64,000 nucleotides of DNA from Terracidiphilus sp. (GCA_050013695.1 JBEKET010000013.1:17917-81916); one strand, 5' to 3'; shown: positions 3,507-34,559, counted from the stretch's first letter. A program made the numbers and translations. Notes: generated by a model from the letters alone, not told the origin.

Positions 3507-3566
3507 TGAACGTCCCTCGCCACCGCAGAGCATCTCAACCGAGTTAAGTCGATGCACTTGTCCGAA

Positions 3567-11025: not shown

Positions 11026-11796
11026 TCAGTCTCCAATTCCCAATCCTTTCTCAAGAGGAATCACATCGTGATTGCGAATGTCTCGCGCGGGTTTGAGAAC
11101 GTGAGAAGAATTCGTGCGGTCCCAGCGTCTCATCGCCGTTTGCAGCAGAAAGCGCAGGTCGGAGAGGGGCGTGGCCTCGGCCATGTAGCGCTCATCGAGG
11201 TTTTGCTTCAGAGGGAGGAGGACATCGCGGCAGTAGTCTTCCAATTTGCCTTCAGGGATTCCGGCCAGGAAGACTTCCTCCTGGGCAAACGCGATGGTTG
11301 CCGCACCCGTAATCCCCGGCCGGCAACTTGACACCCTGGTCAGCTGTTCCGGGACTTTGGGTCGCGGTCCCACAAGGCTCATGTCACCCCGCATCACGTT
11401 GATGAATTGAGGCAACTCATCAAGTTTCCACCACCGCAGGAACCTGCCTGGATTGGTAATTGCCGGATCGTTGATAGTTGTAATCAGGGTTCGTCTCTCG
11501 CTGGAGAGATGCATGGTTCTGAACTTGTAGATTGTGAAAGAAATTCCGTTGCGTCCCACTCTTTTTTGCCGGAACAGAACCGGCCCTCTTGAGCTGATTC
11601 GAACTGCAATGGCGACGATCAGAAATAGTGGCAACAAAATCGGCAGCATCGCAAACACCAGCACAAGGTCAAAGACACGCTTTGCAGGAGACTGCACCCA
11701 TGCGCTGAGGCGCTCCGGCTTCGAGCGATCAACAACAATTTCTGTTGAAGGCTCGGGTCCAAGCACGGGATGCAGAACATTCTGGGCATCGCTCAA
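11026..11796 (-). CDS. Bacterial sugar transferase (priming/phosphoglycosyl transferase, WcaJ/PglC-type catalytic domain)
   Basis: AKRVFDL, one TM, GPVLFRQKRVG, KFRTM, KLDELPQFINVMRGDMSLVGPRP, RPGITG. Probable TTG start 11796 after GGAGG. Confidence 0.9.
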   Translation of the reverse strand: MSDAQNVLHPVLGPEPSTEIVVDRSKPERLSAWVQSPAKRVFDLVLVFAMLPILLPLFLIVAIAVRISSRGPVLFRQKRVGRNGISFTIYKFRTMHLSSERRTLITTINDPAITNPGRFLRWWKLDELPQFINVMRGDMSLVGPRPKVPEQLTRVSSCRPGITGAATIAFAQEEVFLAGIPEGKLEDYCRDVLLPLKQNLDERYMAEATPLSDLRFLLQTAMRRWDRTNSSHVLKPARDIRNHDVIPLEKGLGIGD

Positions 11797-11894
11797 GCGC
11801 ACCTCCCATATTGCTTTAGAAAACATCGTTTGCAACAGCCAGTACGGGCGCCCGTTGCTTGCGGCCTGCATTCGGTTTCGAGGCACTCAGAGAA

Positions 11895-12197
11895 TCAGGG
11901 ATTCAAGAAACGCAGAATTGCCTTTTCATCCTGTTCGCTGAGCGATGCGCGTACCCGCATGTGGCGCACGACGGTGCCTGAGATCCGCGGCGAGAAACCT
12001 TGTGGCGCGTCATGACAGCGCGAACAATTTTGCTTGAATGCGCGTTCTCCCGGACTGGACTCAGCCGGCGACGAAGCCGGCTTTGATTGCGCCGGAGGCG
12101 TCTGACCGCTTGCCTTGGACGCGAGCGGCTGAGCGCAGAGCGGGAGAATGACTATGGCGCCGCCAAGACACGCGAGAAGTACCAAACTGCTCTTCAT
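11895..12197 (-). CDS. Small monohaem c-type cytochrome, secreted
   Basis: Signal peptide, CSRCH haem motif, downstream HM; ATGA overlap with upstream barrel gene. Confidence 0.85.
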   Translation of the reverse strand: MKSSLVLLACLGGAIVILPLCAQPLASKASGQTPPAQSKPASSPAESSPGERAFKQNCSRCHDAPQGFSPRISGTVVRHMRVRASLSEQDEKAILRFLNP

Positions 12198-13258
12198 TTG
12201 CCCCTCCATGCGGGAAAGAGAAACCGATAGACAATGCCTGTTTGCCAGATGTTTCTATCTCCCGACGAAGAGAACTCGCGGGAATAGCTGGTGTTGATTC
12301 GCACTTCATGGGGCAAACGGTAATCGAGACCGAAGTCCGCCTGCTCTGTATCCGCGCCCGGAAGCCCGTCGTTCGAATCGGGCCGCGAGCGAAATGTTTG
12401 CTGCATGCGAAAGACAGGTTCGAATCTGCCCACAAAACTCTCTTCCCCTTTGAATCGGGATAGGCGGTAATCGGCTTCGATCCAGTACCCGCCCGCATGA
12501 GCACCCCTCGCAAACTCTGAACGCAGCCTGAGCGCGGTGTTTGCCGGTTCCCACCAGACGTGTGCACCCTCAAAGTTTTCGTGAACATTCTGAAGTTGCC
12601 GTCCGTAGGAGGCGCCGACCTCGAATCGGGCAGTAGGGAAGTAAAGGCTCGCTTGCCCGCCGCTGGCTCGCTCAGCTGTGAACTGCTGATTCGTACTGGC
12701 TGCAGAGAAATAGACAGCGTAGTTGGCGGACACATGGTCTGTCGCAAACGCCGATCCGCGCAGCATGCCTCCAACGCTCGACGCGGTTTCCATTGTTCCC
12801 AGGCTGAAAATCAACGGCACGTCTTGAAAATTGCCGATCCAGAGCGGAGTCAAGCGTTCGTTGTACGTGCCGAACGGTGTGAGAAAATCGCCGGCCACAA
12901 CCGTGACATGCTTTGAAGCGAGAAAGTCCCCCTGGAGATATGTCAGTCCCAGGAACAGGTCGCCCTTGTAACCCGGCTGTCCTCCGCCCTTGGGAAAGAA
13001 CGGGTCGAGAATAATGGCGCGGCTCTCAACCAGGATGTGATCCCCGATCGGTGCGGCGAGCACGGGTGAAACTACAGGTATGTAGGTTGTGTTTCCTCCG
13101 TTCGTACTGGTAACAAATCCGACGCCACCAGAGATAAGAGGAACGTTCTGACCCTGACTGTCCTGGGCAGCCGACCCCATCGATGCCATGCAAAACGCCA
13201 GGACCGCCGGAATAGCGTGCCTGGCCAGACTGTGTCGAGACGCTGCAGCAATCAACAT
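12194..13258 (-). CDS. Outer-membrane beta-barrel (porin-like) protein
   Basis: Signal peptide, alternating beta-strand pattern, aromatic C-terminus (GIVYRFLFP). Start uncertain (13258 ATG or 13282). Confidence 0.6.
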   Translation of the reverse strand: MLIAAASRHSLARHAIPAVLAFCMASMGSAAQDSQGQNVPLISGGVGFVTSTNGGNTTYIPVVSPVLAAPIGDHILVESRAIILDPFFPKGGGQPGYKGDLFLGLTYLQGDFLASKHVTVVAGDFLTPFGTYNERLTPLWIGNFQDVPLIFSLGTMETASSVGGMLRGSAFATDHVSANYAVYFSAASTNQQFTAERASGGQASLYFPTARFEVGASYGRQLQNVHENFEGAHVWWEPANTALRLRSEFARGAHAGGYWIEADYRLSRFKGEESFVGRFEPVFRMQQTFRSRPDSNDGLPGADTEQADFGLDYRLPHEVRINTSYSREFSSSGDRNIWQTGIVYRFLFPAWRGK

Positions 13259-13290
13259 GGACTTAGATTCGGCCGATTCCACAATCGATG

Positions 13291-13328
13291 TGTCATGAGA
13301 GCGTCTTGCGAATGTCAGCGCATTGTCA
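13291..13328 (+). promoter_or_regulatory. 11-bp-phased TGTCA array A (OmpR/PhoB-type direct repeats)
   Basis: TGTCA 13291, CGTCT 13302, TGTCA 13313, TGTCA 13324; lies just upstream of the minus-strand barrel/cytochrome operon. Confidence 0.7.
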
Positions 13329-13417
13329 CTTGTGATTGGCGCAGGTCACACATGCTGTCCATCCGTGCTTAAGCGCATGGAGTGCCACGCTGGTACGAGG
13401 CCTGGATTTACTGAGCG

Positions 13418-13455
13418 AGACAAAGTCATGACAATCTCCTGACACAGAGGTGACA
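13418..13455 (-). promoter_or_regulatory. 11-bp-phased TGACA array B
   Basis: AGACA 13418, TGACA 13429, 13440, 13451 on +; putative -10 TAGGCT at 13476-13481, 20 bp downstream. Confidence 0.8.
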
Positions 13456-13563
13456 GCTCGTTTGAATTCCCGGCCTAGGCTCAACAGCATGTAACAGGAC
13501 AAGCGCGAGGGCGTGCGGAGTAGCGCAAATCCCGGGCTACCTCTACAAACGCACAGGAGCAAT

Positions 13564-13929
13564 ATGACGAAGTCCATCGTAGTTTTCTTTGTTCTTGCCG
13601 GCATTTTTTCTCCGGCCCGATTCCTTCTGTCGGAGTATCCAACTGACGCCGCTCCCAAGCGCGTCGAGATCACAGCTAAACGATTTGCTTTCGAACCGGC
13701 CAGCATTGAACTCCAGAAGGGAGTGCCGGTGATTCTCGTTTTGAAAAGCGTCGATGTTCCACACGGCCTTCGCTTTCGCGAGCTGAATGTCGATGTAAAA
13801 GCTCCGAAAGGCGGGAGCGGAGAAGTGCAATTCACTCCGGATAAGGACGGCGATTTTGTGGGTCACTGTTCGGTCTTCTGCGGGTCAGGTCACGGGTCAA
13901 TGTCCATGACGATTCATGTGATCGGATAG
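13564..13929 (+). CDS. Stand-alone secreted cupredoxin with binuclear CuA motif (COX2-like soluble domain)
   Basis: DVPHG His plus C-SVF-C-GSG-H-GS-M (CxxxCxxxHxxM). ATG 13564 after AGGAG; N-terminal signal/anchor. Confidence 0.85.
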   Translation: MTKSIVVFFVLAGIFSPARFLLSEYPTDAAPKRVEITAKRFAFEPASIELQKGVPVILVLKSVDVPHGLRFRELNVDVKAPKGGSGEVQFTPDKDGDFVGHCSVFCGSGHGSMSMTIHVIG

Positions 13930-13931
13930 CA

Positions 13932-14426
13932 ATGCGACGCTTCATGATCATCGCCGCGACTGTTTTTTCGGTAGCTGCGCTGGTGTACTGTGCACTTTTT
14001 TTCGATGGGTGCAAGGCGAAGGCCCCCTCCAAACTCGAAACACGCGTGGTGACTTTGGCTAAACATCAATTCTTCATCGGGAACAAGTCGCAGAGAAATC
14101 CGCTGGCAGTTTCGCCGCAGGTAATCGCGGATGGAAAGGAGGCCTTCTCGCACTATTGTGTGGCTTGCCACGGGATGGATGGCCAAAACACAGGCGTGCC
14201 ATTCGCCGATCGCATGGCTCCGCCGGTGCCATCTCTGGCTTCGCCGGATGTGCAGAGGTACAGCGACGGCCAATTGAAATGGGTGATCGATTACGGTATT
14301 TGGCCTTCAGGAATGCCGGGCTCGAAGGGAACCCTGAGCGACGACGAAATCTGGTCGATCGTCGTCTATCTGCGTCATCTGCCTCCGCCTGGCAGCGTTG
14401 GCGAACCGGAAATGTACAGTCATTGA
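13932..14426 (+). CDS. Membrane-anchored monohaem cytochrome c
   Basis: N-terminal TM, CVACH motif, distal SGMPG Met; starts 2 bp after the CuA gene stop. Confidence 0.85.
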   Translation: MRRFMIIAATVFSVAALVYCALFFDGCKAKAPSKLETRVVTLAKHQFFIGNKSQRNPLAVSPQVIADGKEAFSHYCVACHGMDGQNTGVPFADRMAPPVPSLASPDVQRYSDGQLKWVIDYGIWPSGMPGSKGTLSDDEIWSIVVYLRHLPPPGSVGEPEMYSH

Positions 14427-14431
14427 TTCCT

Positions 14432-15700
14432 ATGAACGTTCTTAAGACTCAATCCGGAGATCGACAGCGGCCCGCTCCGCGCAGGCTGAAGGAAGCGGTC
14501 CTCGCCAGTTTTCGATTTTCTTCCGGCGACGTCACCAATCAATTTCGAAACTATTCACTGAACGATTGGCAGGCGATCCTGGTCTGGCTGGATATCAGCG
14601 GAATGGCTTTGTATTTGCTCGACCGCGTACGGGAGTTGAAGATCGAAGGCAGCGTTCCCGTGCCAATTCGCGAACGCATGCAGTTGAACCTCGAGCGAAA
14701 TCGGGAGCGGACAGCAGCCCTCCTGAGTCATGCAAAGGATGTTGCGAATCGGTTTAAGCAAGCCGGGATTCCCTTTGCGCTGCTGAAGGGAATCACGCTC
14801 ACGCCGGATTCCGTACCCGAGCCGGCACTGCGGTGGCAAACCGACCTTGACTTCCTGGTTGGCGGATCGGATGCGGAAGCCGCAAGTGAGATTCTGCGAA
14901 GCCTCGGCTACACCCTGAACGCAACAAGCGGACGCACGATGGAATTCAGGTCCGGCTCCTCCGGCAAATGGGACCTCGCAAATCTTTATCGGGCGGACAT
15001 CCAGCGATCAATTGAGTTGCATTGTCTGCCGCGTCGTGACGGATCGCAAGACCGTCTGGCGCGCGCGAGCGGCAGGCTATTCGACGGAACAGAGATACCG
15101 GCGCTCTCCGCGGCGGACACTTTTGTGCAGCAGGCCTTGCACTTGATGAAGCATCTGTGCGGGGAGCATACGCGCCTCTCCTGGGTGCTTGAATTCACGC
15201 GGCATCTTCGGTTACGGCAACACGATCACGCATTTTGGAAGGATGTGAGGGCGATTGCAAAGACCGAACCTCAAGCCGGCCTTGCAATAGCGATGTCTGT
15301 TTGGCTCGCGTCCGAAATGTTTGGGTTGAACCTGCCGAGCGCTGTCGATCCATGGGCATCAGATCAAATCCCAGATGGGGTCATCGTCTGGTTGCAGCGC
15401 TATGCCCGTGAACTACTCCTTTCAGATTCGCACGCAAGCAAGCTCTATCTCCTGCTTCGCCGCCAGTTGCCCAACAGGCCCGATGTGAAAGGCACTGCCA
15501 GATTGATGATCCCACTGTGCCTGCCGGCCAGAATTACCGAGCCGGTGCCGGGCGAGACACTGACGGATCGCTTGACCCGCTACCGAATAGAAGCGAGCCA
15601 CAGTTGGCGGCGCCTGTGCTTTCACTTGTTCGAAGGAATTCGGCTCGGTATCGAAACCTTGTGCTGGGAATGGAGAACGCCGAAGGTGCAACAGCGATGA
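14432..15700 (+). CDS. Nucleotidyltransferase-family protein (NTP_transf_5-like)
   Basis: IPFALLKGI...LRWQTDLDFLV (pol-beta-like DxD) and IELH. ATG 14432; ATGA overlap with next gene. Confidence 0.75.
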   Translation: MNVLKTQSGDRQRPAPRRLKEAVLASFRFSSGDVTNQFRNYSLNDWQAILVWLDISGMALYLLDRVRELKIEGSVPVPIRERMQLNLERNRERTAALLSHAKDVANRFKQAGIPFALLKGITLTPDSVPEPALRWQTDLDFLVGGSDAEAASEILRSLGYTLNATSGRTMEFRSGSSGKWDLANLYRADIQRSIELHCLPRRDGSQDRLARASGRLFDGTEIPALSAADTFVQQALHLMKHLCGEHTRLSWVLEFTRHLRLRQHDHAFWKDVRAIAKTEPQAGLAIAMSVWLASEMFGLNLPSAVDPWASDQIPDGVIVWLQRYARELLLSDSHASKLYLLLRRQLPNRPDVKGTARLMIPLCLPARITEPVPGETLTDRLTRYRIEASHSWRRLCFHLFEGIRLGIETLCWEWRTPKVQQR

Positions 15701-18687
15701 TCTTACGCAGAACGAGAAACGTGCTTCGGGTCGTGGCTTTCCCAATCTCCAATGCAGTTGTTTGCCTGGCAATGCTCTGTCTTGCGCCCTCCGTCGCAGC
15801 GCAGACGCAACCCGACCCCACGGTGCAAACCATACCCAACACCAGCGTGCAGGCTCAATCGGACGGCATGTCTGTTTCGCAGCCTGGACCGGGGATGAGC
15901 ATACCTGACAATTCGACGGGGCTCAACTCCTTGGAGAAGCCCACAGAAGATCCACGCAACGTGCTTGGTGCACCTCAGATCATTGCCATTGCACAGCAGA
16001 ACCCCGATGTAATTCTCGAACTCAAGTCCCTGGTGGCCGACCTGGCGCAGGCAAGAGGGATTCCATCACAGGCGGATGGAATTACCGATGATCAGCTTTT
16101 TAGCCAGATCGCCAGAGACAAAGTGTTGCGCGCAAGCATCACTCATTTGCTTTTGGCGCGGGGATATATCTCGGAAGAAGACATTGAGGTTGCGTCGCAG
16201 GAGAACGCGGACGAGAACGACAATCGGGCCGGGTTCGGGGCCCGTGACAAAAGGACGGATGTTGGTTTTGATAATCGCCTGAAGAATCCAGACACCGCGA
16301 ATGTGGCACGGGGGAATGAAGATTTAGCAACTCTTCCGCAATTCGACGATCAGCAATCGCCTTCAAGAACTCGTATCGCAGACAAGCACCAGGAACCAAA
16401 GGTTCAGCCGAACATCACAGATGAGCCGAAGTCGCTTCGCCGGGATGCGCCTTACAATCTGCTTTCGCTCAGGGATCTTTACACTCAGATTCCGGATTCG
16501 CCGGAGCAACTGAAGCGCTTCGGCGCGGAAGTGTTTACTCATCGCGAGACAGCCGTTGACAACTATCGTTCGTCTTCCGCGGTGAATGCAATGCCGCTCG
16601 ACGTTCCGCTCGGTCCGGATTACGTACTGGGGCCGGGAGATGAACTCAGTATCAGCTTGTGGGGCGGGGTATCCGAAAGCTTTACTCGTGCCATTAATCG
16701 CGAAGGAGCCATTTTGCTGCCGGAAGCGGGGCAGATTCAAGTAGCTGGGCTCACGCTGGGAAATGCGCAGGCCGCTATTGGCAATGCTCTGCAGCCTCAG
16801 TTTCGCGACGCGCACGTGGCCGTCACGCTGGCTCGCCTGCGCACCATCAGGATCTATGTGATAGGGGACGTGCAACGTCCTGGCGCATATGACATCAGTT
16901 CACTCGCATCACCGTTGAGCGCGCTCTATGCCGCGGGAGGGCCGACTGCAATCGGTTCGCTGCGCGTAATGCACCACACGCGCAACGGGAATTCGATTGG
17001 TGATATTGATCTCTACGACTTTCTTCTCCATGGAGTTCGGAATGCGGATGATCATCTGCAGGGCGGCGACACTCTTCTCGTTCCGCCGGCAGGGCCGCAA
17101 ATCGCATTCTATGGCGCGGTGAAACGCCCGGCGATTTATGAACTTCGCGATGAAAAGACCCTAGCGGCGGGTCTTGAAGATGCCGGAGGGTTTACCGTTG
17201 CCGCGGAACTGAGCCACATCACGATCGAACGCATCGTGGCCAACCAACACCGCGAAACCATTCCTGTGCAAGCCCCCGCATCCATTGGTCAAGCGAACGA
17301 AGAGAGTAACTTCGCAAATGTGGAATTGAGGGACGGCGATCGCGTTCGGGTTGGCACCGTGCTGCCTTCCAACGAGCGCGTGGTGTATCTCCAGGGACAC
17401 GTGGGCCGCCCCGGCAAGCTGGCTTATCGCGATGGATTGCATCTCGCCGATGTCTTGAAGAGTTATCGCGACTTACTTCCGGAACCGGCAGCAAAGGGAG
17501 AAATTGTCAGGCTTATAGCTCCCGACCTTCACCCGGAAACGATCACATTCAACCTTCCCGACGTGTTGATTGGAAACTCAAATCCATCTCTGCAGCCGTT
17601 CGACACCATCCGGGTTTTCGGCAGGTATGAGCGGGACTCTCCCAACGTAACTATCCAGGGCGAAGTGCAGCATCCGGGCTCCTACCCCATGTTCGACGGT
17701 ATGACTGCTGCTCAATTGGTGCGCGCTGCCGGTGGTTTCAAGCGGGACGCATCGCTCCAGGATGCGGATCTGATCAGCTATCACGTGGTGAACGACTCAG
17801 GCGTCAACATTGAGCGCCGTACTCTCTCGATTGGAGCCGCGGTCCTTCAGAACGATGCGCAGGCCGATTCAGCTCTTCAGCCAGGCGATGTGCTGACCAT
17901 CCATCAACTCACAGGGTGGAACGACATTGGCTCATCCATATTGATCCAGGGTGAAGTTGCGCATCCGGGGAGTTATGGATTCACAGAGGGCGAGCATTTG
18001 AGCGATGTTTTGAGACGCGCTGGAGGGTTTCGCGCCACTGCGTATCCGGAGGGCGCGGTTCTGACTCGCCCAGAAGTTCGCGTGCTTGAAGAAAAGAGCC
18101 GCGAGGAGCTGATTCGTCAGATCGAGACCAGTTCAGCCGCTGCCCGCATGTCTCCTACGATGGCAGCGGGCGATCAAGCGGCAACCCTGCAGCTGATTCA
18201 GCAGCAGCAGGACCAGGTGCTTTCGCGCCTGCGGAGTCAGCCGCCAAGCGGGCGGCTCGTGATTCACATCGACGGATCAATCGATCAATGGGCGGGCACT
18301 GAGGCTGATATTGAAGTGCGGAAGGGCGATGTGTTGCGCATTCCCAAGCGCCCTGGGTTTGTGCTGATCAGCGGCCAGGTGTACAACGCGTCAGCCATAA
18401 CGTTTAGTGCGGGAAAGACTGCCGGGTGGTATCTGGAGCGTGCCGGAGGAGCCACCTCGATCGCGAATCGCAAGGAGATATTTGTCATTCGCGCCAATGG
18501 TTCCGTGGTTGGTCGCCGTTCCGGAGAAGGCTATGGCCAAAATGTTTTGTCGACCAAGCTCGACCCCGGCGATGTGATTGTGGTGCCGCAGAAGATAGTC
18601 GGAACTTCAGTGGTCTGGAGAAACATTCTTGGTGCGGGGCAGATTGCGGCATCGCTTGCGATTGCTGCGGCTGTTGCGGGTCTTTAG
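15697..18687 (+). CDS. Polysaccharide export protein (OPX/Wza-like) with multiple SLBB domains
   Basis: DYVLGPGDELSISLWG export domain, repeated V.GEV..PG.Y SLBB units, LQPGDVL, C-terminal amphipathic helix. Start 15697 from ATGA coupling. Confidence 0.9.
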   Translation: MILRRTRNVLRVVAFPISNAVVCLAMLCLAPSVAAQTQPDPTVQTIPNTSVQAQSDGMSVSQPGPGMSIPDNSTGLNSLEKPTEDPRNVLGAPQIIAIAQQNPDVILELKSLVADLAQARGIPSQADGITDDQLFSQIARDKVLRASITHLLLARGYISEEDIEVASQENADENDNRAGFGARDKRTDVGFDNRLKNPDTANVARGNEDLATLPQFDDQQSPSRTRIADKHQEPKVQPNITDEPKSLRRDAPYNLLSLRDLYTQIPDSPEQLKRFGAEVFTHRETAVDNYRSSSAVNAMPLDVPLGPDYVLGPGDELSISLWGGVSESFTRAINREGAILLPEAGQIQVAGLTLGNAQAAIGNALQPQFRDAHVAVTLARLRTIRIYVIGDVQRPGAYDISSLASPLSALYAAGGPTAIGSLRVMHHTRNGNSIGDIDLYDFLLHGVRNADDHLQGGDTLLVPPAGPQIAFYGAVKRPAIYELRDEKTLAAGLEDAGGFTVAAELSHITIERIVANQHRETIPVQAPASIGQANEESNFANVELRDGDRVRVGTVLPSNERVVYLQGHVGRPGKLAYRDGLHLADVLKSYRDLLPEPAAKGEIVRLIAPDLHPETITFNLPDVLIGNSNPSLQPFDTIRVFGRYERDSPNVTIQGEVQHPGSYPMFDGMTAAQLVRAAGGFKRDASLQDADLISYHVVNDSGVNIERRTLSIGAAVLQNDAQADSALQPGDVLTIHQLTGWNDIGSSILIQGEVAHPGSYGFTEGEHLSDVLRRAGGFRATAYPEGAVLTRPEVRVLEEKSREELIRQIETSSAAARMSPTMAAGDQAATLQLIQQQQDQVLSRLRSQPPSGRLVIHIDGSIDQWAGTEADIEVRKGDVLRIPKRPGFVLISGQVYNASAITFSAGKTAGWYLERAGGATSIANRKEIFVIRANGSVVGRRSGEGYGQNVLSTKLDPGDVIVVPQKIVGTSVVWRNILGAGQIAASLAIAAAVAGL

Positions 18688-18694
18688 GAGCGGC

Positions 18695-20029
18695 ATGACA
18701 GAACCGATTGAATCGCCGGCAAGCATGCCAATGCCCACCGCGGCATCGAATGCGGAAAGCGATGCGAATCTCCGTCCAAATTGGATCACAAACACTTCTG
18801 TCTTGTTGCGGCATAGACGGTTTCTTGCGCGAGCTGTTGGCGTTGCCTTTCTGGTGAATATCGCCATCGCATTTCTCATTCCTAAACAGTTTCAATCGAC
18901 AGCGCGGATCATGCCGCCCGAGAACTCTGGATCAGGAACGGCACTGCTCGCCGCACTGACGGGGCGGGCGCTGGGGGGCGACGCGATTGGAGGTCTTGCC
19001 GCGAGCCTTATTGGAGGCCATAACACAGGTTCTCTTTTTATCGACCTGCTGAAGAGCGATACAATAACCGGCCATCTTGTCGACCGCTTCCAACTCCAAT
19101 CCGTTTATGGCAAAAGATATCGCGTGGACGCATGCAAAGCGCTCGTCCGCCGCACCCGCGTCGAGCAAGACAAGAAGAGCGGAGTTATCACCATCGTCGT
19201 TACGGATGAGAGCGCACAACGCGCGCGTGACATCGCGCAGGCATATCTCGACGAGTTAGACGTGGTTGTCAACCGGACCAACACTTCATCGGCGCATCGC
19301 GAACGAATGTTTATAGAAAACCGATTGTCCGCGGTGAGGGTGAATCTTGACCGGGCACAGGACGCCCTGAGCAACTTTTCCAGTACCAACATGACGGTTG
19401 ATCTTAAGGAACAGACACGCGCGACCGTTGATGCGGCAGCGACGCTCGAGGCAGAGCTCATTACGACGCAGGGAGAGGTGACTTCCCTGGATCAGATTTA
19501 TGGCGACGGCAATGTGCGCGTTCGGGCCGCTCAAGCGCGCGCCGCCAATCTGCGAAAGGAATTGGCAAAGCTGGGAGGCACTTCCGATTCGCTTTCAAAG
19601 GACGTCGATGATGATCCTGAATCGAGGATCGCGAAGAAGAATTCGGATGGCCTCGAGTATCCGGCGCTGCGCCAGTTGCCTCGACTCGCGGTGCCTTACG
19701 CAAATCTCTACCGAAATGTGCGGGTTCAGGAAACTGTTTTCGAACTCCTTACACAGCAATTCGAGATTGCGCAAATTCAGGAAGCCAAAGACATTCCCAT
19801 ATTGAGTGTCATCGATTCTCCGGGCATTGCGGAAAAGAAATCGTTTCCGCCACGGACACTCTTGATCCTGATCCTAACCATCGTTGAAGGCCTCACAGTT
19901 TCAGCGATTATCGTCGTGCGCTTTCACTGGCGAGCCGTCGATCTGAACGATCCGCGGCGCGTGATTGCGGCAGAGGCATCCCATGCTTTTCGGGAGTTTC
20001 TGCGTCGTGCGCGGACTGGCGGGAACTGA
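18695..20029 (+). CDS. Polysaccharide co-polymerase / chain-length regulator (Wzz/GumC-like, no kinase domain)
   Basis: Two TMs flanking a coiled-coil periplasmic region; PKQFQSTARIMPP; VIDSPGIAEKKSFPPR before TM2. Confidence 0.85.
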   Translation: MTEPIESPASMPMPTAASNAESDANLRPNWITNTSVLLRHRRFLARAVGVAFLVNIAIAFLIPKQFQSTARIMPPENSGSGTALLAALTGRALGGDAIGGLAASLIGGHNTGSLFIDLLKSDTITGHLVDRFQLQSVYGKRYRVDACKALVRRTRVEQDKKSGVITIVVTDESAQRARDIAQAYLDELDVVVNRTNTSSAHRERMFIENRLSAVRVNLDRAQDALSNFSSTNMTVDLKEQTRATVDAAATLEAELITTQGEVTSLDQIYGDGNVRVRAAQARAANLRKELAKLGGTSDSLSKDVDDDPESRIAKKNSDGLEYPALRQLPRLAVPYANLYRNVRVQETVFELLTQQFEIAQIQEAKDIPILSVIDSPGIAEKKSFPPRTLLILILTIVEGLTVSAIIVVRFHWRAVDLNDPRRVIAAEASHAFREFLRRARTGGN

Positions 20030-20157
20030 ACCCTTCGATCTCTTGCTTCCGCTTTGGAGCATCACCTTGATCAATTCTTATCTCGGCCAATTAAGACCGA
20101 GTCTGAAGCACAACTTGAACCAGCAACACCGTTCCGCAACGTAAGGAGGGTCCGCAC

Positions 20158-21348
20158 GTGAGAATTGTTATCGCCGCCTTAACCGCTCCATGCAGCCTCA
20201 ACGGCGTCTCGCGGCATGCGGCCAACCTGGCACGCGGTCTGGTGTCTTTGCCCGACCCGCCTGAAGTGCATTTTCTCGCAGGGCAGTGGCAGCGGGAGAT
20301 GTACCCGCCGGCCATTGCACGAACCAATTCGCAATTTCATCTTCACTGGATCCAAATCCCGCGAAGTAACTTCGGCAGGATTGCATGGTATTACCGGGAT
20401 CTTCCATCCATTGCGGCGCAGCTTGAGGCCGACGTGGTGCACATGGCATGTCCAGCCCCGGTGCAACGCCGCGCCTACAAGTGCCCCACTGTCGTCAGCC
20501 TGCACGATCTATACCCGTTTGAGATTCCCAAAAACTTTGGAATCGTAAGGAGTGAAATCAGTCGCCGGTTGATGAGTCAGTGTCTCATGAAAGTTGACGC
20601 GGTTGCTTGTGTATCGGACTTCACCAGGTCGCGGATTTCGCATTGGTTTCCTCCGGAGATCAGCGAAAAGGCACTGACGATTCCCAACTCGGTTACGCCC
20701 ATCTTTGGCGCCGGGACGGCCCCGCAGCAGCTTCGGGGCGGGCAGCCGTTTGTGCTGTGCATTGCGCAGCATCGCCAAAACAAGAATGTTCCGCTGGCGC
20801 TCAGAATCTTCTTCCAGGCGTTGAAAGCGAAAATCCTTCCGGCACATTCCCGGTTTCTTTTACTGGGCATCGCAGGGCCGGACACTCGCAGGATATTGAG
20901 GGATGTCCAAAGCCTGGGCCTGGAAGATCGAGTGCTCACCTTAAGTGGAATCAGCGATCAGGATTTGCAATGGTGCTATCGCAATTGTTCCCTGCTGCTG
21001 GCGCCGTCATCGATTGAGGGCTTTGGGTTGCCTATCGCTGAGGCGTTGATCACCGGTTGTCCGGTAGTGTGCTCCGATATTCCGCCGTTCCGCGAAGTCG
21101 GCGGGAATCGCTGCCACTACATCCGCTTCGGCGATGGTTTGATGAATGAATATCTTGAAGCCATTCGCCAAGCCTTGAGAGATCCGCGTCGATTTGGTGC
21201 GTCGATGCCGCAACTCGCACCTGTTTCGATCGCGGCGAGGTATGTGGACCTTTACCAGCACTTGATAGAGTCCCACAGCGTCTCGCAAAATGGTATGCTA
21301 CGGCATCTCGATTCGGAAACTCGAACGATTGGAGTTCCGGTTGACTGA
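20158..21348 (+). CDS. Glycosyltransferase family 4 (GT-B)
   Basis: SLHDLYP, EGFGLPIAEA (ExFGxxxxE), VVCSDIP. GTG start after AAGGAGG. Confidence 0.9.
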   Translation: MRIVIAALTAPCSLNGVSRHAANLARGLVSLPDPPEVHFLAGQWQREMYPPAIARTNSQFHLHWIQIPRSNFGRIAWYYRDLPSIAAQLEADVVHMACPAPVQRRAYKCPTVVSLHDLYPFEIPKNFGIVRSEISRRLMSQCLMKVDAVACVSDFTRSRISHWFPPEISEKALTIPNSVTPIFGAGTAPQQLRGGQPFVLCIAQHRQNKNVPLALRIFFQALKAKILPAHSRFLLLGIAGPDTRRILRDVQSLGLEDRVLTLSGISDQDLQWCYRNCSLLLAPSSIEGFGLPIAEALITGCPVVCSDIPPFREVGGNRCHYIRFGDGLMNEYLEAIRQALRDPRRFGASMPQLAPVSIAARYVDLYQHLIESHSVSQNGMLRHLDSETRTIGVPVD

Positions 21349-21357
21349 TAGGGAAAT

Positions 21358-21373
21358 TGTCATTGCATTGTCA
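21358..21373 (+). promoter_or_regulatory. Tandem TGTCA box C upstream of the response regulator (putative autoregulatory site)
   Basis: ATTGTCATTGC-ATTGTCATTTT: TGTCA at 21358 and 21369, about 50 bp upstream of the ATG. Confidence 0.7.
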
Positions 21374-21424
21374 TTTTCGCCCAGGATTGAAGGGCCAGCA
21401 TGCATTACGGAGGAAAATGGAACC

Positions 21425-22162
21425 ATGGCCAGGGAATCGGGTGTTGCCGCAGTCGAGCAGGAGGAAGTGTCTTCTCAAGGAAATCTGGGCGTGATCCTCG
21501 TGGTCGAAGACGACCCAAGGATGCAGCGCGTGCTGACCAGGATGTTCCTCGCGGAGCACTACGATGTCATCACTGCGGGTGACGGACAAACCGGCCTTGA
21601 TCTATTCCGCTCGCGTCATCCCGTCGCCGTCGTACTCGATCTGATCCTGCCGCAGATATCGGGTCGTGAGTTATGCCAAAAGTTCAAAGCAATTTCCAGC
21701 GACACGCCTGTGCTTGTGGTCAGCGCGATTGCGGAAGTGGTAGACAAGGTGCTCCTGCTTGAACTGGGTGCGGACGATTACGTAACCAAGCCCTTCAGTC
21801 CACGCGAACTGATGGCGCGAGTGCAGGCTGCAATCCGCCGCCGGCGCAAGCCCGCCACTGCGACCTCTTTTCATTTTGCGGATTGTGAAGTGGACTTCAA
21901 GAAAATGACGGTTCACCGCAACGGCCATCCGATTCAACTCACTTCACATGAGTTCAAACTGCTCAAGTTTTTCACTGACCACGCGGAGCGAGTGCTCAGC
22001 CGCGAAGAACTCCTGAATGAGGTATGGGGCTACAACTGCTATCCGACTACCAGGACCGTTGACAATCAAATCCTCAAGCTTCGGCAGAAACTGGAACCGA
22101 ATCCCACAGACCCCCGCCACCTGCTGACCATCTACGGCGCCGGGTACAAATTCGTTCCCTGA
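21425..22162 (+). CDS. OmpR/PhoB-family response regulator
   Basis: ILVVEDD, VVLDLILP (phospho-Asp), GADDYVTKPF, wHTH with RTVDNQILKLRQKLE and TIYGAGYKF. ATG 21425 after GGAGG. Confidence 0.95.
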   Translation: MARESGVAAVEQEEVSSQGNLGVILVVEDDPRMQRVLTRMFLAEHYDVITAGDGQTGLDLFRSRHPVAVVLDLILPQISGRELCQKFKAISSDTPVLVVSAIAEVVDKVLLLELGADDYVTKPFSPRELMARVQAAIRRRRKPATATSFHFADCEVDFKKMTVHRNGHPIQLTSHEFKLLKFFTDHAERVLSREELLNEVWGYNCYPTTRTVDNQILKLRQKLEPNPTDPRHLLTIYGAGYKFVP

Positions 22163-22167
22163 TTGAG

Positions 22168-24006
22168 ATGGTGGACGGACCGATCACAAGCGCTTCCACG
22201 ACGGCAAGCAATTCTCCCAAAGAGAATAGGGGACTGCGCACGCGTGTCCTGCTGACGCTCGCCATGGCCGGCATCATTGCAGGCACCACGGTGGTGAGCG
22301 TGCTGGCGATTCGCCAGCCTCTTCAAGCGCTCTTTGTCAGAAGTGTTTCGTCGGACCTCGACAATTCCATCGCGACTTTTGCGAAGTTTCAAGCGGAGCG
22401 ACTGGTTGCTCTCGACCGTGAAAATGCGCTGTTGGCCGACCTGCCGGACCTCAGGGCCCTGATGACGACTAACGATGAAAGGACAATCGATGACGGCGCA
22501 GTGAGGTTCTGGAAGTTGAGTGGATCAGATCTGTTCGCGCTCGCTGACACCAATGGGCATATCGTCGCGGCGTTTAATAGTGCGTCGTCCGCCGGACAGC
22601 CTTTGCGGAAGGATTTGCGGGCGTATGTGAGCGGCGCACCGACTCCGTTCCTGGTGAGCGGAAATCACTTGTTCGGTTGCTCTGTCAGGCCCATCTATTT
22701 CGGCAGCCAATCGGAAGGCACCGTTCTTGGGTACGTCATCAGCGGATTCGCCATCGATCGCGCCGCTGTTGAACAGCTGAGCCAGGCAACTGGCGTGAAT
22801 GCGTCCTTCTTGTCCGGCGATCTCCTGCTGGCTAGTTCGTTCAAACCGGCATTGGAGACGCAGATGTCGACTGTGCATGTGCCTGCCGCAAATCATCCGG
22901 AGGAGCCGTTCAAGATTGTACTTGGCGGTGAATCGTATTTGGCCGTCGTGCGCATTCTCTCGATGAATGATTCTGTTCCGTTGCGGTTGATCGAATTGAA
23001 ATCTCTCAATCAGGAAGAGCGGACCATTCGCCAGATTGACCGCATCGTGCTCTCAGCGGGGCTGCTGGCCCTGGTGCTTGGAACGGCTTTGATGTTCCTG
23101 CTCTCACGCGCCGTGACACGCCCGCTGGAGGAACTGGCAGCCGGCGTGCGAGCGTTTGCCGAAGGGGACAGTGCGTATCTGTTGCCCTATCGAGGCACCC
23201 GCGAGGTGCGTGAGTTGAGCGCCGCTTTCGGCGGAATGCGGAAGGAAATCCTGCAAGCCAACCAATCTCTTTTGGAATCGGAACGGCTGGCCACCATTGG
23301 CCGCATGGCTAGCTCGGTTTCTCACGACCTGCGCCACTATCTCGCCGCGGTCTACGCAAATGCGGAATTCCTCGCCACCGGTAACCTCACAATAGAGGAT
23401 CGCAACGAGATTCTTGGCGAGATTCGATCGGCGGTGAACGGTACGACTGACCTGTTGGAATCCCTCCTGATTATCAGCAGATCAGGGCCCGGCATTCGCA
23501 GATCACAGTACCTTGTTGCCTCAGCCGTCGAGAAGGTGATGGGTATGATCCACGCGCATCCCGACGCTGCTGGTGTGCAGTTCTCAGTTCACCTCTGCAA
23601 TCCGGATTTGACCAGTGCCGTCATCGACGCGACGCAGGTCGAACGTGCCGTGTTTAATCTTTTGTTGAACGCGTGCCAGGCACCGCGTTCCACAGACGCC
23701 GCGCCCACTGTCTCGATCGATCTCGAGGCGTATGAGACGGAGGTCGTCATTGAAGTAACAGACAACGGAGATGGAGTTCCAGTCGGAATTCGCAACACTC
23801 TCTTCGACCCATTCATCAGCGAGGGGAAACAGAAGGGCTCGGGCCTGGGACTGACATTGACTCAATGCATTGCCGTTGAACACGGCGGCAACGTCACCCT
23901 GGTGCGCAGCAGCCCGGGTGAGACGGTCTTTCGCATGTCAATCACGAGGAGTGGCGATGCGCCTCTCACGCTGACTTCGACTCGTACTGAAATGGAGATG
24001 TTATGA
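22168..24006 (+). CDS. Sensor histidine kinase (periplasmic domain, HAMP, HisKA, HATPase)
   Basis: Two TMs, HAMP (VTRPLEELA), H-box SHDLRH, NLLLNA, DNGDG, GSGLGL. Confidence 0.95.
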   Translation: MVDGPITSASTTASNSPKENRGLRTRVLLTLAMAGIIAGTTVVSVLAIRQPLQALFVRSVSSDLDNSIATFAKFQAERLVALDRENALLADLPDLRALMTTNDERTIDDGAVRFWKLSGSDLFALADTNGHIVAAFNSASSAGQPLRKDLRAYVSGAPTPFLVSGNHLFGCSVRPIYFGSQSEGTVLGYVISGFAIDRAAVEQLSQATGVNASFLSGDLLLASSFKPALETQMSTVHVPAANHPEEPFKIVLGGESYLAVVRILSMNDSVPLRLIELKSLNQEERTIRQIDRIVLSAGLLALVLGTALMFLLSRAVTRPLEELAAGVRAFAEGDSAYLLPYRGTREVRELSAAFGGMRKEILQANQSLLESERLATIGRMASSVSHDLRHYLAAVYANAEFLATGNLTIEDRNEILGEIRSAVNGTTDLLESLLIISRSGPGIRRSQYLVASAVEKVMGMIHAHPDAAGVQFSVHLCNPDLTSAVIDATQVERAVFNLLLNACQAPRSTDAAPTVSIDLEAYETEVVIEVTDNGDGVPVGIRNTLFDPFISEGKQKGSGLGLTLTQCIAVEHGGNVTLVRSSPGETVFRMSITRSGDAPLTLTSTRTEMEML

Positions 24007-25529
24007 AACCAACAATCTCTGCCAGGACTGTTTTGAAAAGATGCCTTCCGCGCGCGGCAACAGCAAGGGCGGCGACTACGGTTGTTGCGGCCCTCCTCTG
24101 CTGCCTGCCTTACACCGTACGAGCGCAGGAAAGCGTGGCAGAGAAGATTGAACGGCTCGACGGGCTCATGATCCGTGTGCAAGCGCAGCTCGAAGAGTCA
24201 CAGCACGAATTGAAGGATATTCAGCAACAACTTTCGGCGCTGCGTGGACAGGCAGGACTTCCGGGAAAGAACGCCCCGGACGCGACGGCCAATCCAGCGG
24301 CAACGCAGTTGGCTGCGGCGGTGGAAGAGCTGCGCGAAAAGCAGGACGTGCAGGAGTCCCAGGTAGCCGCGCAGGAACAGGCGAAAGTTGGAAGCGAGTC
24401 GCGGTATCCTGTGACGCTCAGCGGGATGGTCCTTTTCAACGGTTTTGTGAATACGCACGGAGTCGATGCTGCGCCCACTCCGGCCATAGCGTTCTCAGGG
24501 CCAGGCACAACAGGGGCCTCGCTTCGTCAATCCGTTCTTGGCATCGACGCCAGCGGACCGCATCTTTTCGGCTCCCAAAGTCACGCGGATCTTCGCATGG
24601 ATTTCGACGGCGGAACACCGAACAGCGGCTACTCAGATGTGGTTGGGACCGTGCGTTTACGAACCGCGCATGCGGAACTGGACTGGCAGCACACGAAAGC
24701 ATTCTTTGCTCTGGATCGGCCAATTCTCAGCCCGGATGCGCCAACTTCGCTCACCGCAGTGGGGGAACCGGCTCTGGCATGGTCGGGAAATCTCTGGGCA
24801 TGGAATCCACAAGCCGGAGTTTCGGAAGAGTTGCCAATTCATCGGGCCGCATCTTTCGAGATGCAGGCGGCGTTGATTGATGTAACCAACCCGCCAAGCA
24901 GCAACATGAATGCTGCGCCCTTGCCACTTGTCGTACCGTCTACATCGGAATTGAGCCGTTGGCCGGGAGTCGAGGCACGCGTGTCACTCAACCATCCCAT
25001 CGCCGACAGCGAAGCGCATTTTGGTGTTGGCGGCTTCTTCGCGCCGCATCGAACCGGGGGAGGAGCGGACTTTGACTCATGGGCAGGCACCGCGGATTTT
25101 CATCTTCCGGTCTTTTCGCACTTTGATCTTATGGGGAGTGCTTATCGCGGCCAGGCGCTCGGTGGCCTTGGAGCAGGGGCCTACAAGGATTTTGTCTCAA
25201 CCGTCTATGATGGCGAATACTACTTCCGTACAGTCGACGACATGGGCGGATGGATCCAGGCAAAACAGAGGATCAATCAACGGCTTGAATTCAATGAGGC
25301 CCTGGGAATCGACAATGTACCGGCCTATCAACTTCGACCCTACGCGATGCCCGGGCCGAGCAGTTACTACAATCTCGCTCGAAATCGAACCTTCACCAGT
25401 AACTTGATCTTCAAACCGAGCGCCTATCTTTTGTATTCGATTGAGTATCGCCGCATTGAATCGTCTTATGTGAACTCGCCAACGGCATGGAGCGATGTGA
25501 TTGGCATTGCCGCAGGATACAAATTCTGA
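24003..25529 (+). CDS. Outer-membrane beta-barrel protein with N-terminal coiled coil
   Basis: Signal peptide, coiled coil (QLEESQHELKDIQQQL), beta-strand pattern ending AAGYKF; ATGA-coupled to the kinase. Confidence 0.7.
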   Translation: MKPTISARTVLKRCLPRAATARAATTVVAALLCCLPYTVRAQESVAEKIERLDGLMIRVQAQLEESQHELKDIQQQLSALRGQAGLPGKNAPDATANPAATQLAAAVEELREKQDVQESQVAAQEQAKVGSESRYPVTLSGMVLFNGFVNTHGVDAAPTPAIAFSGPGTTGASLRQSVLGIDASGPHLFGSQSHADLRMDFDGGTPNSGYSDVVGTVRLRTAHAELDWQHTKAFFALDRPILSPDAPTSLTAVGEPALAWSGNLWAWNPQAGVSEELPIHRAASFEMQAALIDVTNPPSSNMNAAPLPLVVPSTSELSRWPGVEARVSLNHPIADSEAHFGVGGFFAPHRTGGGADFDSWAGTADFHLPVFSHFDLMGSAYRGQALGGLGAGAYKDFVSTVYDGEYYFRTVDDMGGWIQAKQRINQRLEFNEALGIDNVPAYQLRPYAMPGPSSYYNLARNRTFTSNLIFKPSAYLLYSIEYRRIESSYVNSPTAWSDVIGIAAGYKF

Positions 25530-26260
25530 TGATGTGTGGAGACACTCCAATTCGGATCCGCTGTCTGATGTTCTGCGGATTTGCGTTTCTTTCACTGCTG
25601 GCTGGGGCGCAGGATGCGCAGGCTCCCCGGCTCGCGGAGTTGCATGCGCGCATTGAGCTCGCGCCGCGCCAGATGAAGGGCCATCCTCCCGCGGCAGTCC
25701 TTTGGCTAACGCAGCTTTCTGCCGATGCGGCCAGCCGGACTGTATCTCCCGGCCGCTTCACGCTGGTCCAGAAAAACCGCATGTTCACACCTCACCTGCT
25801 GGTTGTGCCGGTTGGGAGCGTTGTTGCGTTTCCCAACGCCGATCCTTTTTTTCACAACGTCTTTTCCCTATTCAACGGCAAGAGATTCGATCTCGGCCTA
25901 TATGAAGCAGGGAAGTCAAAAGACGTGGTTTTTTCCCGCGAGGGCGTGTCTTACATCTTCTGCAATATTCATCCGGAGATGAGCGCGGTTGTGCTCGCGC
26001 TCTCCACGCCCTATTTTGCCATCGCTGATCAGAACGAAAATGTTCATCTCGACAATATCCCCGCCGGAGAATACGAACTTCACGCGTGGGTCGAGGGACT
26101 GACGCAGCCGGATCTGGATCGCCTGGTGCGGCGCGTACGTCTCGGTCCCGGCAAATCGGAGTCAATCACGCTTGACGCGCGCGACCTTTCGCGTGAGCCG
26201 CCTGGTCATCTGAACAAATTTGGCCAACCGTATGCGCAGCCTGCAAAGCCCGATTACTGA
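25529..26260 (+). CDS. Secreted cupredoxin (type-1 copper) with C-terminal Ig-like domain
   Basis: FPNADPFFHNVFS and FCNIHPEM give His/Cys/His/Met ligands; TGATG coupling. Confidence 0.75.
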   Translation: MMCGDTPIRIRCLMFCGFAFLSLLAGAQDAQAPRLAELHARIELAPRQMKGHPPAAVLWLTQLSADAASRTVSPGRFTLVQKNRMFTPHLLVVPVGSVVAFPNADPFFHNVFSLFNGKRFDLGLYEAGKSKDVVFSREGVSYIFCNIHPEMSAVVLALSTPYFAIADQNENVHLDNIPAGEYELHAWVEGLTQPDLDRLVRRVRLGPGKSESITLDARDLSREPPGHLNKFGQPYAQPAKPDY

Positions 26261-27182
26261 TCGAAGAGGATTGGTTGGATTCCCACGCCACAGTCGGCGA
26301 ATTGGTTGGAAATAGGCCGACGTTTTCGCAATCTGCGAGACTCGTCGGTAGGCGATAAACCTTCAATCCAGTCAGTTGCAAGGCGATGTGCCACAGGAAA
26401 GCCGCATTGCTGACGTTGCGGCGCCATAGACGCTTCGGATCCTGCAGCAGCCGGTGCAGCCAATGGAATCCCATCTTCTTGACCCACGGAGCACAATCTC
26501 TGACTCGCCCAGTGTGAAAATCAAATGCGGCGCCCACTCCGAGCATCAGGCGCGTCTCCAGGCGCGGCAGCATCCTGCGCATGAAGAGGTCCTGTCTCGG
26601 TGCGCCGATTCCTACCCAGATGATGTCCGGTTTGCACGCCCTGATGGTCTGCGCAAGATCACTCTCTTCCGCAGCGGTCAACTCGCGAAAAGGTGGTGTG
26701 AAACTGCCGGCAATGCGCGTCCATGGAAATTGCCAAAGCATATTCGCGGCGAGTTCGCCTGCAACGCCATCTTTTCCCCCATAAAAGAAATGCCGATAGT
26801 CTGCGAATTCTTTCCGGCTGAACATTTCGTACATCAGTGCGGGGCCCGTGACCGCCTCCATCGAAACATGTTTCTGAAGCCGGCCGACCCAAACCGTCGG
26901 GGTACCGTCCGGTATCGCAATCGCAGCTTCGGCGAATGTGCGCGCCACATCCGGATTGCGCCGAGCTGAAAGAACCCCATTGACGTCAATGGCGCACACG
27001 TAGCCCTTCTTACCGGATCGGAGAATTCGCTTCACGCGCGAAAGCGCCACCTCCAGATTCAGCGCGTCAACAGCAACGCCGAGCACGTTGGCACAGGGGC
27101 CACGGAAGGAAGACACTCGCTCCGTGCCCGGATCTTCAGCGCCCAACTTGAGCCCAGCGGCGCTATGCGACGTCAGGCTCAT
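26166..27182 (-). CDS. WecB/TagA/CpsF-family glycosyltransferase (GT26)
   Basis: IPDGTPTVW, HFFYGG, PDIIWVGIGAPRQD, GVGAAFDF, RLLQDPKRLWRR. Start 27182 (ATGA overlap with flippase). Confidence 0.9.
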   Translation of the reverse strand: MSLTSHSAAGLKLGAEDPGTERVSSFRGPCANVLGVAVDALNLEVALSRVKRILRSGKKGYVCAIDVNGVLSARRNPDVARTFAEAAIAIPDGTPTVWVGRLQKHVSMEAVTGPALMYEMFSRKEFADYRHFFYGGKDGVAGELAANMLWQFPWTRIAGSFTPPFRELTAAEESDLAQTIRACKPDIIWVGIGAPRQDLFMRRMLPRLETRLMLGVGAAFDFHTGRVRDCAPWVKKMGFHWLHRLLQDPKRLWRRNVSNAAFLWHIALQLTGLKVYRLPTSLADCENVGLFPTNSPTVAWESNQSSSISNRALQAAHTVGQICSDDQAAHAKGRARQA

Positions 27183-28576: not shown

Positions 28577-28614
28577 TGTCAGGACGTAGTCAAATGAATG
28601 TCATCTGTTTGTCA
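28577..28614 (+). promoter_or_regulatory. 11-bp-phased TGTCA array D upstream of the flippase
   Basis: TGTCA 28577, AGTCA 28588, TGTCA 28599, TGTCA 28610; putative minus-strand -10 TACTGT at 28556-28551, 20 bp away. Confidence 0.8.
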
Positions 28615-34532: not shown

Positions 34533-34559
34533 TGTCAGCATCATGTCTTTCGATTGTCA
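34533..34559 (+). promoter_or_regulatory. 11-bp-phased TGTCA array E upstream of the TonB-dependent receptor
   Basis: TGTCA 34533, TGTCT 34544, TGTCA 34555; putative minus-strand -10 TATTCT at 34511-34506 (21 bp away); overlaps palindrome TGCTGAC-TT-GTCAGCA 34525-34540. Confidence 0.75.

Follow-up and report, generated by a model that had tools for sequence, protein, structure and literature searches.

Arrays of 11-bp repeats as probable operators of a two-component response regulator for a 23-kb island of polysaccharide and redox genes in Acidobacteria of peat soil

The Acidobacteria are a dominant but poorly tractable phylum of soil and peat, and to our knowledge hardly any of their promoters or transcription factor binding sites have been described. 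Here we analyse a 64,000-nucleotide stretch of DNA from Terracidiphilus sp. (GCA_050013695.1 JBEKET010000013.1:17917-81916, hereafter the window), in which two arrays of the pentamer TGTCA, called A and B and facing opposite ways, lie in the intergenic region between the minus-strand ATG at 13258 of a gene for a secreted 354-amino-acid (354-aa) protein and the plus-strand ATG at 13564 of a cupredoxin gene. The analysis suggests that a putative regulator encoded in the same window most likely controls, through these and three further arrays, a 23-kb island of polysaccharide and redox genes. A search of the literature on regulation in Acidobacteria returned nothing specific to this system. The divergent region and its two arms are laid out as follows.

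11026..13258, minus strand: minus arm, encoding the 354-aa secreted protein, a cytochrome c and a Bac_transf protein
13265..13270, minus strand: GAATCT, predicted -10 element of array A, 20 bp from the array, with A-11 and T-7 present
13291..13328, plus strand: array A, four 11-bp units, adjoining the minus-strand operon
13329..13417, no strand: inter-array spacer of 89 bp, with A and B mutually inverted
13418..13455, minus strand: array B, four 11-bp units, adjoining the plus-strand operon
13476..13481, plus strand: TAGGCT, predicted -10 element of array B, 20 bp from the array (TAnnnT in 17/17 loci)
13564..21348, plus strand: plus arm, from the cupredoxin gene to a GT4 gene

The original prediction, made from the sequence of the window, had placed two inverted TGTCA/TGACA arrays about 90 bp apart in this divergent promoter, and the reanalysis confirms them, with a gap of 89 bp and an exact 11-bp period in both. 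This period, which the prediction had missed, is the most informative feature of the arrays. Array A reads, on the plus strand, TGTCA at 13291, 13313 and 13324 and CGTCT (3/5 matches) at 13302; array B reads, on the minus strand, TGTCA at 13455, 13444 and 13433 and TGTCT (4/5) at 13422, or AGACA, TGACA, TGACA and TGACA when 13418-13455 is read on the plus strand. The predicted count of four units per array thus stands as four positions at the 11-bp period, but each array comprises three exact units and one degenerate unit, the latter kept in orthologues. Past the pentamers, the sequences of A and B are not mirror images. TGTCA-N6-TGTCA occurs five times in the window against 0.09 expected, the three-of-four-unit pattern three times against 0.01 expected, and a four-unit score of at least 17/20 is reached only at A, B and 28577-28614 (array C below) and in none of 50 shuffles, so that A and B are far beyond chance.

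Five promoters in the window, between 13.3 and 34.5 kb, carry the motif, and the 11-bp period is exact throughout arrays A to E; the remaining 40 kb of the window, beyond 11-35 kb, has no TGTCA-N6-TGTCA. Neither the arrays other than A and B nor the regulator gene that would account for all five figured in the original prediction. The three further arrays, their predicted -10 elements and the operon that follows array D are these.

21358..21373, plus strand: array D, two perfect units, ATTGTCATTGCATTGTCATTT, in the same direction as the regulator gene
21413..21418, plus strand: GAAAAT, predicted -10 element of the regulator promoter, 39 bp past array D
21425..26260, plus strand: regulator operon, four genes, directly after array D
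21425-22162, plus strand: OmpR/PhoB-family response regulator, with Response_reg and Trans_reg_C domains
22168-24006, plus strand: CHASE4-HAMP-HisKA-HATPase kinase, partner of the response regulator
24003-25529, plus strand: secreted coiled-coil protein of 508 aa, function unassigned
25487-26260, plus strand: membrane-anchored protein of 257 aa, with weak cupredoxin and fn3_3 matches
28556-28551, minus strand: TACTGT, predicted -10 element of array C, 20 bp from the array
28577..28614, plus strand: array C, four units (TGTCA, aGTCA, TGTCA, TGTCA), serving the minus-strand Wzx operon
34511-34506, minus strand: TATTCT, predicted -10 element of array E, 21 bp from the array
34533..34559, plus strand: array E, three units (TGTCA, TGTCt, TGTCA; three-unit scan), serving the minus-strand TonB-receptor operon

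Array D, which reads TGTCA toward the regulator gene, is oriented oppositely to A, B, C and E, and array E has counterparts in four related loci (L003, L004, L005 and L019).

Conservation was followed across 88 Acidobacteriaceae loci: seven orthologous loci from Terracidiphilus and other Acidobacteriaceae metagenome-assembled genomes (MAGs), found through the kinase; 80 metagenomic loci found through the regulator (72-97% identity); and one locus of the cultured Occallatibacter riparius (CP093313.1 4,177,344-4,198,396; L095), reached through a homologue of the 354-aa protein. Together, the 87 loci found through the kinase or the regulator amount to 920 kb and hold 150 arrays, against two in shuffled sequence, and 145 occurrences of TGTCA-N6-TGTCA, against none in 107 kb of unrelated control loci. 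The consensus is WWTGTCA at an 11-bp period, with units P1 and P3 strong and P2 and P4 weak. In 81 of 82 loci, Occallatibacter included, the regulator gene has a D-type site scoring at least 9/10 upstream of it (random windows, 4%), and arrays accompany the regulator even in loci with a rearranged gene order. Sites A to D are all kept in close relatives wherever the locus covers them, array B being conserved in 17 loci. In the alignments it is the arrays and the short hexamers that are conserved, not the 20-bp spacers or the 89-bp centre, whose length is the same in close relatives and different in more distant loci. Four-unit arrays are found ahead of the 354-aa gene in 18/18 loci, of the cupredoxin gene in 9/9 and of the Wzx gene in 14/23, as compared with 5 of 800 random windows; in a lineage that lacks the 354-aa gene, they are found ahead of Bac_transf in 3/3 loci. 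This lineage (L006, L015 and L016) also lacks the plus-arm cytochrome c and NTP_transf_5 (its small minus-arm cytochrome c was not searched for), yet both arrays are kept, and array A stands directly before Bac_transf, followed by a remnant of the first codons of the 354-aa gene.

The Occallatibacter riparius locus carries both mirror arrays, with an outer span of 132 bp, as well as the 20-bp spacing and the hexamer-6 nt-ATG pattern described below and an autoregulatory-type site. It is without Wza, Wzz and GT4; judged by this locus, the conserved core seems to consist of the redox genes and the two-component system.

The arrays stand at a fixed distance from a promoter-like hexamer. With arrays of at least three units turned so that TGACA faces the nearer gene, 53 of 76 unique flanks have TAnnnT exactly 20 bp past the proximal TGACA and 7 have it at 21 bp, and any other offset is found at most three times. 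The 20-bp spacer holds almost no information, and a conserved -35 element is absent at any spacing: the promoters are thus read as a -10 element without a conserved -35 element. Because the 20-bp rule is fixed, multi-unit arrays are predicted to occupy about -70 to -33 of the adjacent promoter. The same rule assigns each array to its adjacent gene, and by this geometry both arms are predicted to share one promoter architecture in which each array serves the operon beside it; the original prediction is supported in reading the two as operator-type arrays. Transcription from arrays C and E would start near 28544 and near 34499, and in Occallatibacter the predicted starts of the two arms are the ATG of the 354-aa gene and a position 7 nt after TAAGTT.

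On the minus arm, six nucleotides separate GAATCT from the ATG at 13258; relative to a predicted start at 13258, array A has its proximal unit (13291-13295) at about -37 to -33. This 6-nt spacing recurs in 12/12 unique A-type flanks, Occallatibacter included; the hexamer is GAnnCT in 11 of the 12 (L043 has CATCGT). Since the hexamer-6 nt-ATG spacing is conserved, the minus-arm mRNA is probably leaderless and starts at this ATG. On the plus arm, T, A, G and T of TAGGCT are invariant in the close-relative alignment, the proximal unit (13451-13455) again lies at about -37 to -33, and the predicted start near 13488 would give a 5' untranslated region of about 76 nt with a Shine-Dalgarno sequence, AGGAG, at 13556-13560. 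The first 30 or so nucleotides beyond the plus-strand -10 element (13483-13510; relatives have GAACAGTATGCaACGGAGCgAGCGCGA) are kept in close relatives, with no open reading frame (ORF) conserved along with them, the window reading ATG TAA there; an additional regulatory element of the leader may lie in this stretch.

The regulator promoter is built differently. Array D would lie at about -67 to -52, and GAAAAT is followed by six nucleotides and the ATG at 21425, from which a leaderless regulator mRNA is predicted; D-type sites stand 39-40 bp upstream of a conserved GA(A/G)AAT, which in close relatives and Occallatibacter (GAGAAT) is likewise followed by 6 nt and ATG.

Several other arrangements were tried and rejected. 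A crossing model, in which each array would drive the distal operon in the orientation of an E. coli Pho box, finds no -10-like hexamer 10-11 bp past the last TGTCA, the region beyond the arrays is not conserved, and the 20-bp rule assigns the adjacent gene. A sigma-54 promoter in the centre (TGGCAC...GC, minus strand near 13385), judged by eye, is 2 bp off in spacing and not conserved. The TGACA units do not serve as sigma-70 -35 hexamers, as their spacer is 20 bp and not 17 +/- 1, and no consensus sigma-70 promoters were found in 10800-16000. A promoter at array D firing backwards into the GT4 gene would have GAACTC at the 20-bp position, inside coding sequence, and array E as a D-type site for a plus-strand Fer4 gene has no hexamer at 39-40 bp.

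As 11-bp direct repeats are a signature of the OmpR/PhoB family, the regulator beside array D is the obvious candidate to bind them. Its gene lies about 8 kb from arrays A and B, with its kinase encoded alongside, and its closest solved relatives are MtrA, RegX3 and KdpE. PhoB is the top-scoring NCBIfam model, at 199.5 bits for TIGR02154 against a cutoff of 296.2, and the remaining PhoB models are likewise below cutoff; as judged from these scores, the protein is not a PhoB equivalog. Of 87 regulator orthologues, 82 have an identical recognition helix, RTVDNQILKLRQKL. The four genes of the regulator operon are syntenic in nearly all regulator-derived loci long enough to show them, and they remain together even where polysaccharide genes sit elsewhere (L015-L095); the regulator, kinase, 508-aa and 257-aa proteins may form a four-gene sensing module.

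We consider it probable that the arrays are binding sites of the phosphorylated response regulator (21425-22162), which would activate a local regulon. The locus displays the hallmarks of OmpR/PhoB-family operators: direct repeats of 10-11 bp, a Trans_reg_C regulator with its kinase nearby, co-occurrence of motif and regulator including the regulator's own promoter, and sites at or upstream of the predicted -35 region. The motif, its period and conservation, its linkage to the regulator gene and its fixed distance from a -10-like hexamer are shown by the analysis; which protein binds, where transcription starts and the sign of the regulation are inferred. In the proposed mechanism, the periplasmic CHASE4 domain of the kinase would sense a signal, the regulator would be phosphorylated, and its dimers would bind the 11-bp repeats with one winged-helix domain per unit, so that a four-unit array would take two head-to-tail dimers. 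The alternation of strong (P1, P3) and weak (P2, P4) units suggests one dimer per strong-weak pair and cooperative filling. At A, B, C and E, RNA polymerase would be recruited by the dimer nearest the promoter, standing in for the -35 contact, and transcription would thereby be activated; such a replacement is most likely because these promoters, though they have a -10 element, lack a conserved -35 element. Array A would drive the minus arm and array B the plus arm, with a start near 13488; the same regulator would act at the Wzx promoter (C) and the TonB-receptor promoter (E), and array D would be a two-unit high-affinity autoregulatory site through which the regulator operon receives feedback. 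In that case, a single local regulon would take in all 19 genes between 11026 and 34467.

Several observations weigh against activation by this regulator or leave room for others. The proximal unit overlaps the position of sigma region 4, and the sequence alone is compatible with repression; two other proteins of the window (8609-10846 and 36572-38935) share the DNA-binding domain; array D differs from the other four in orientation and distance, so that one protein would have to work in two architectures; and the minus-arm -10 hexamer, GAATCT, is non-canonical, the leaderless start there following from the hexamer-6 nt-ATG spacing as its sole basis. The rival explanations are that the regulator represses, that another protein binds, or that A and B act as one unit. 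Repression through the -35 region, with the island expressed when the kinase is inactive, would account for the proximal unit at -37 to -33, and four bound units could also block UP-element and alpha C-terminal domain contacts; yet the lack of a conserved -35 element at any spacing and of any sigma-70 consensus match is typical of activator-dependent promoters, repressor sites usually lie over the -10 element or the start site, and the fixed 20-bp register to the -10 element points to a precise contact between protein and polymerase. We therefore regard repression as quite unlikely. E. coli Pho boxes, for example those of phoA and pstS, have CTGTCAT pointing at the gene and stop 10 bp short of the -10 element. 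That the arrays are Pho boxes bound by the organism's own PhoB, which would place the island, its own regulator gene included, in the phosphate-starvation regulon, is a reading that gains from the TGTCA core and the 11-bp period, both matching the E. coli core CTGTCAT (PMC4415409), from the activation of exopolysaccharide (EPS) II genes by PhoB through PHO boxes in Sinorhizobium meliloti (PMC3233446), and from PhoB being the best NCBIfam model for the local regulator. We nevertheless judge it very unlikely: the local regulator falls far short of the PhoB cutoff given above, its kinase carries a periplasmic CHASE4-HAMP region unlike PhoR, neither pst nor phoU genes occur in the 64-kb window, arrays A, B, C and E run the other way from the E. 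coli box and stand 20 bp from the -10 element (D is co-directional but at 39 bp), and the motif accompanies this particular regulator gene in 81/82 loci.

On either side of the island the window encodes a receiver-less Trans_reg_C protein, one with a PD40 beta-propeller (8609-10846) and one with TPR repeats (36572-38935). As one-component regulators they could be the proteins that bind the arrays, having the same type of winged helix, which reads direct repeats, and sitting at the island borders. This is highly improbable, as an orthologue of either is absent within at most 10 kb on each side of the regulator gene in the 88 array-carrying loci, queries with the two proteins matched only the regulator's own DNA-binding domain at about 30% identity, and the universal site before the response regulator gene is best read as autoregulation. 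The original prediction had regarded A and B as a symmetric switch that co-expresses both arms, which in its strongest form would make them one cooperative looped or palindromic super-operator. In favour of such a switch, the closest relatives share an outer span of 165-166 bp and both arrays have four units, but mirror pairs occur in 19 loci with outer spans of 119, 145, 152, 163, 165, 166, 184, 199 and 589 bp (132 bp in Occallatibacter), which are not multiples of the helical turn and show no phasing; the centre between the arrays is not conserved; and at the Wzx and TonB-receptor promoters one array of the same geometry is present without a partner. A joint operator is thus the least credible of the alternatives, with hardly any probability left to it, and the symmetric switch was not upheld. 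Because the spans are unphased, the centre is unconserved and single arrays stand alone, A and B are best described, on this comparative evidence, as two independent activator modules placed back to back, and the mirror image arises because two divergent promoters each carry their own upstream array. Co-expression of the two arms survives as the expected outcome, since both arrays very probably answer to one regulator; a dedicated symmetric switch is unsupported.

Activation by the phosphorylated response regulator has close precedents, the type of control being textbook; the two-component system itself is separate and dedicated to the cluster. In E. coli, direct repeats in the divergent intergenic regions of torR-torCAD (the tor boxes of TorR) and ompC-micF (OmpR) control both directions; there, one repeat set in one orientation is shared, whereas here each promoter has an array and orientation of its own. 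OmpR/PhoB-family regulators bind as head-to-tail dimers with one winged helix per 11-bp unit (PMC4415409), and tandem dimers of 2, 4 or 6 protomers form on 11-bp direct repeats overlapping the -35 region (PMC11825685; PMC4415409). E. coli PhoB and its Pho boxes are alike in family, in direct repeats with a TGTCA core at 11 bp arranged in one to several 22-bp boxes, in a site that takes the place of the -35 element and in an autoregulated regulator gene (PMC4415409), the last two being predicted here. They differ in that multi-unit arrays here read TGACA toward the gene at 20 bp from the -10 element, rather than CTGTCAT at 10 bp, in the sub-cutoff regulator and the CHASE4 kinase, and in the putative targets, which are polysaccharide, redox and outer-membrane genes and not those of phosphate uptake. 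The tandem dimers of Mycobacterium tuberculosis PhoP are, by analogy, the best structural counterpart of a four-unit array at -70 to -33: two to three head-to-tail dimers bind consecutive boxes, and the downstream dimer displaces the contact between sigma R4 and the -35 element (PMC11825685). Core motif, phylum and the orientation of the boxes to the promoter differ, and the system described here is known from sequence alone. Salmonella PhoP is similar in having boxes in both orientations and in its varied promoter distances and activation mechanisms (PMC3335776), a parallel to the orientation and distance of A, B, C and E as against D; its box, (T/G)GTTTA-N5-(T/G)GTTTA, is usually single, unlike the four-unit arrays with a strict 20-bp register found here. 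In Sinorhizobium meliloti a PhoB-type regulator switches on several galactoglucan (EPS II) operons, as well as a regulatory gene, by way of boxes made of direct repeats (PMC3233446), but it does so as a global PhoB together with WggR and MucR, in contrast to the in-cluster two-component system here, for which no sites of co-regulators were detected.

The remaining genes of the island are listed below; the polysaccharide genes, cytochrome c proteins, receptor-like protein and transporter were assigned by Pfam and NCBIfam scans, except where stated.

11886-11026, minus strand: Bac_transf priming glycosyltransferase
12209-11895, minus strand: monohaem cytochrome c, CSRCH, a small CxxCH cytochrome
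13258-12194, minus strand: secreted beta-rich 354-aa protein, no family match
13564-13929, plus strand: CuA-type cupredoxin, motif H..CxxxCxxxHxxM, H..CSVFCGSGHGSM
13932-14426, plus strand: cytochrome c
14432-15700, plus strand: NTP_transf_5 nucleotidyltransferase
15697-18687, plus strand: Wza
18695-20029, plus strand: Wzz/PCP
20158-21348, plus strand: GT4 glycosyltransferase
26166..28528, minus strand: Wzx operon, encoding Wzx and a WecG/TagA-family glycosyltransferase
27182-26166, minus strand: WecG/TagA-family glycosyltransferase
28528-27179, minus strand: Wzx flippase
28632..34467, minus strand: TonB-receptor operon, encoding a receptor-like protein, a P-loop protein and an MFS protein
29960-28632, minus strand: MFS transporter
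31021-29954, minus strand: HPr-kinase-C-like P-loop protein
34467-31021, minus strand: TonB-dependent receptor-like outer-membrane protein

The gene calls that the original prediction made for the two arms hold: cytochrome c and then Bac_transf on the minus arm, and CuA cupredoxin, cytochrome c, NTP_transf_5, Wza and Wzz on the plus arm. Its 'barrel' protein is a secreted beta-rich protein of 354 aa, for which a barrel fold is not established: an AlphaFold model built with 25 homologues has about 15 beta strands at low confidence (pLDDT 46). Searches of Pfam, NCBIfam and PDB sequences with this protein gave no match, and all of its 2896 homologues are annotated as hypothetical. Intergenic gaps are 2, 5, -4 and 7 bp from the cupredoxin gene to Wzz and -16 and 8 bp on the minus arm, and no terminator-like sites were found between genes in 10800-16000; because of this tight packing and the lack of such sites, the redox and polysaccharide genes within each arm are probably co-transcribed. 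The HPr-kinase-C-like, NTP_transf_5, MFS and TonB-receptor-like proteins are predicted to be co-regulated with the EPS genes.

It is also conceivable, though unlikely, that the core of the regulon is an undescribed envelope redox module and not the polysaccharide machinery. Such a module would consist of the CuA cupredoxin and its cytochrome c, the secreted beta-rich (possibly outer-membrane) protein and its monohaem cytochrome c, and the CHASE4 sensor with two secreted accessory proteins. In its favour, Occallatibacter riparius has this core and both mirror arrays in a locus without Wza, Wzz and GT4, and arrays stand before the 354-aa and cupredoxin genes in every locus counted (18/18 and 9/9). 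If this were true, what the arrays jointly induce in peat Acidobacteria would be an electron-transfer or oxidative system of the envelope or the extracellular space, along with a matrix polysaccharide.

Elsewhere in the window, 53404-59179 encodes a DUF4384 protein, a caspase-TPR-PEGA protein, a CHASE2-adenylate/guanylate cyclase and a DUF928 protein, a signalling module unrelated to the arrays. At 39183-44251 lies the gene of a 1522-aa hybrid kinase (4HB_MCP, five PAS, HisKA, receiver and Hpt domains), followed by that of a single-domain receiver protein. Two antisense ORFs of about 590 aa, 3552-5330 on the plus strand and 3567-5324 on the minus strand, overlap almost totally and have no Pfam match; one of them must be a shadow ORF.

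Taken as a whole, the analysis offers a cis-regulatory model made up of a motif, its 20-bp geometry, two predicted leaderless starts, an autoregulated CHASE4 system and a putative 19-gene regulon. The model would link exopolysaccharide export to small copper and haem proteins under one sensor, and its predictions can be checked in a cultured strain, Occallatibacter riparius (CP093313.1). Across thousands of Acidobacteriaceae MAGs, the 20-bp rule can likewise serve in the annotation of promoters and of members of the regulon.

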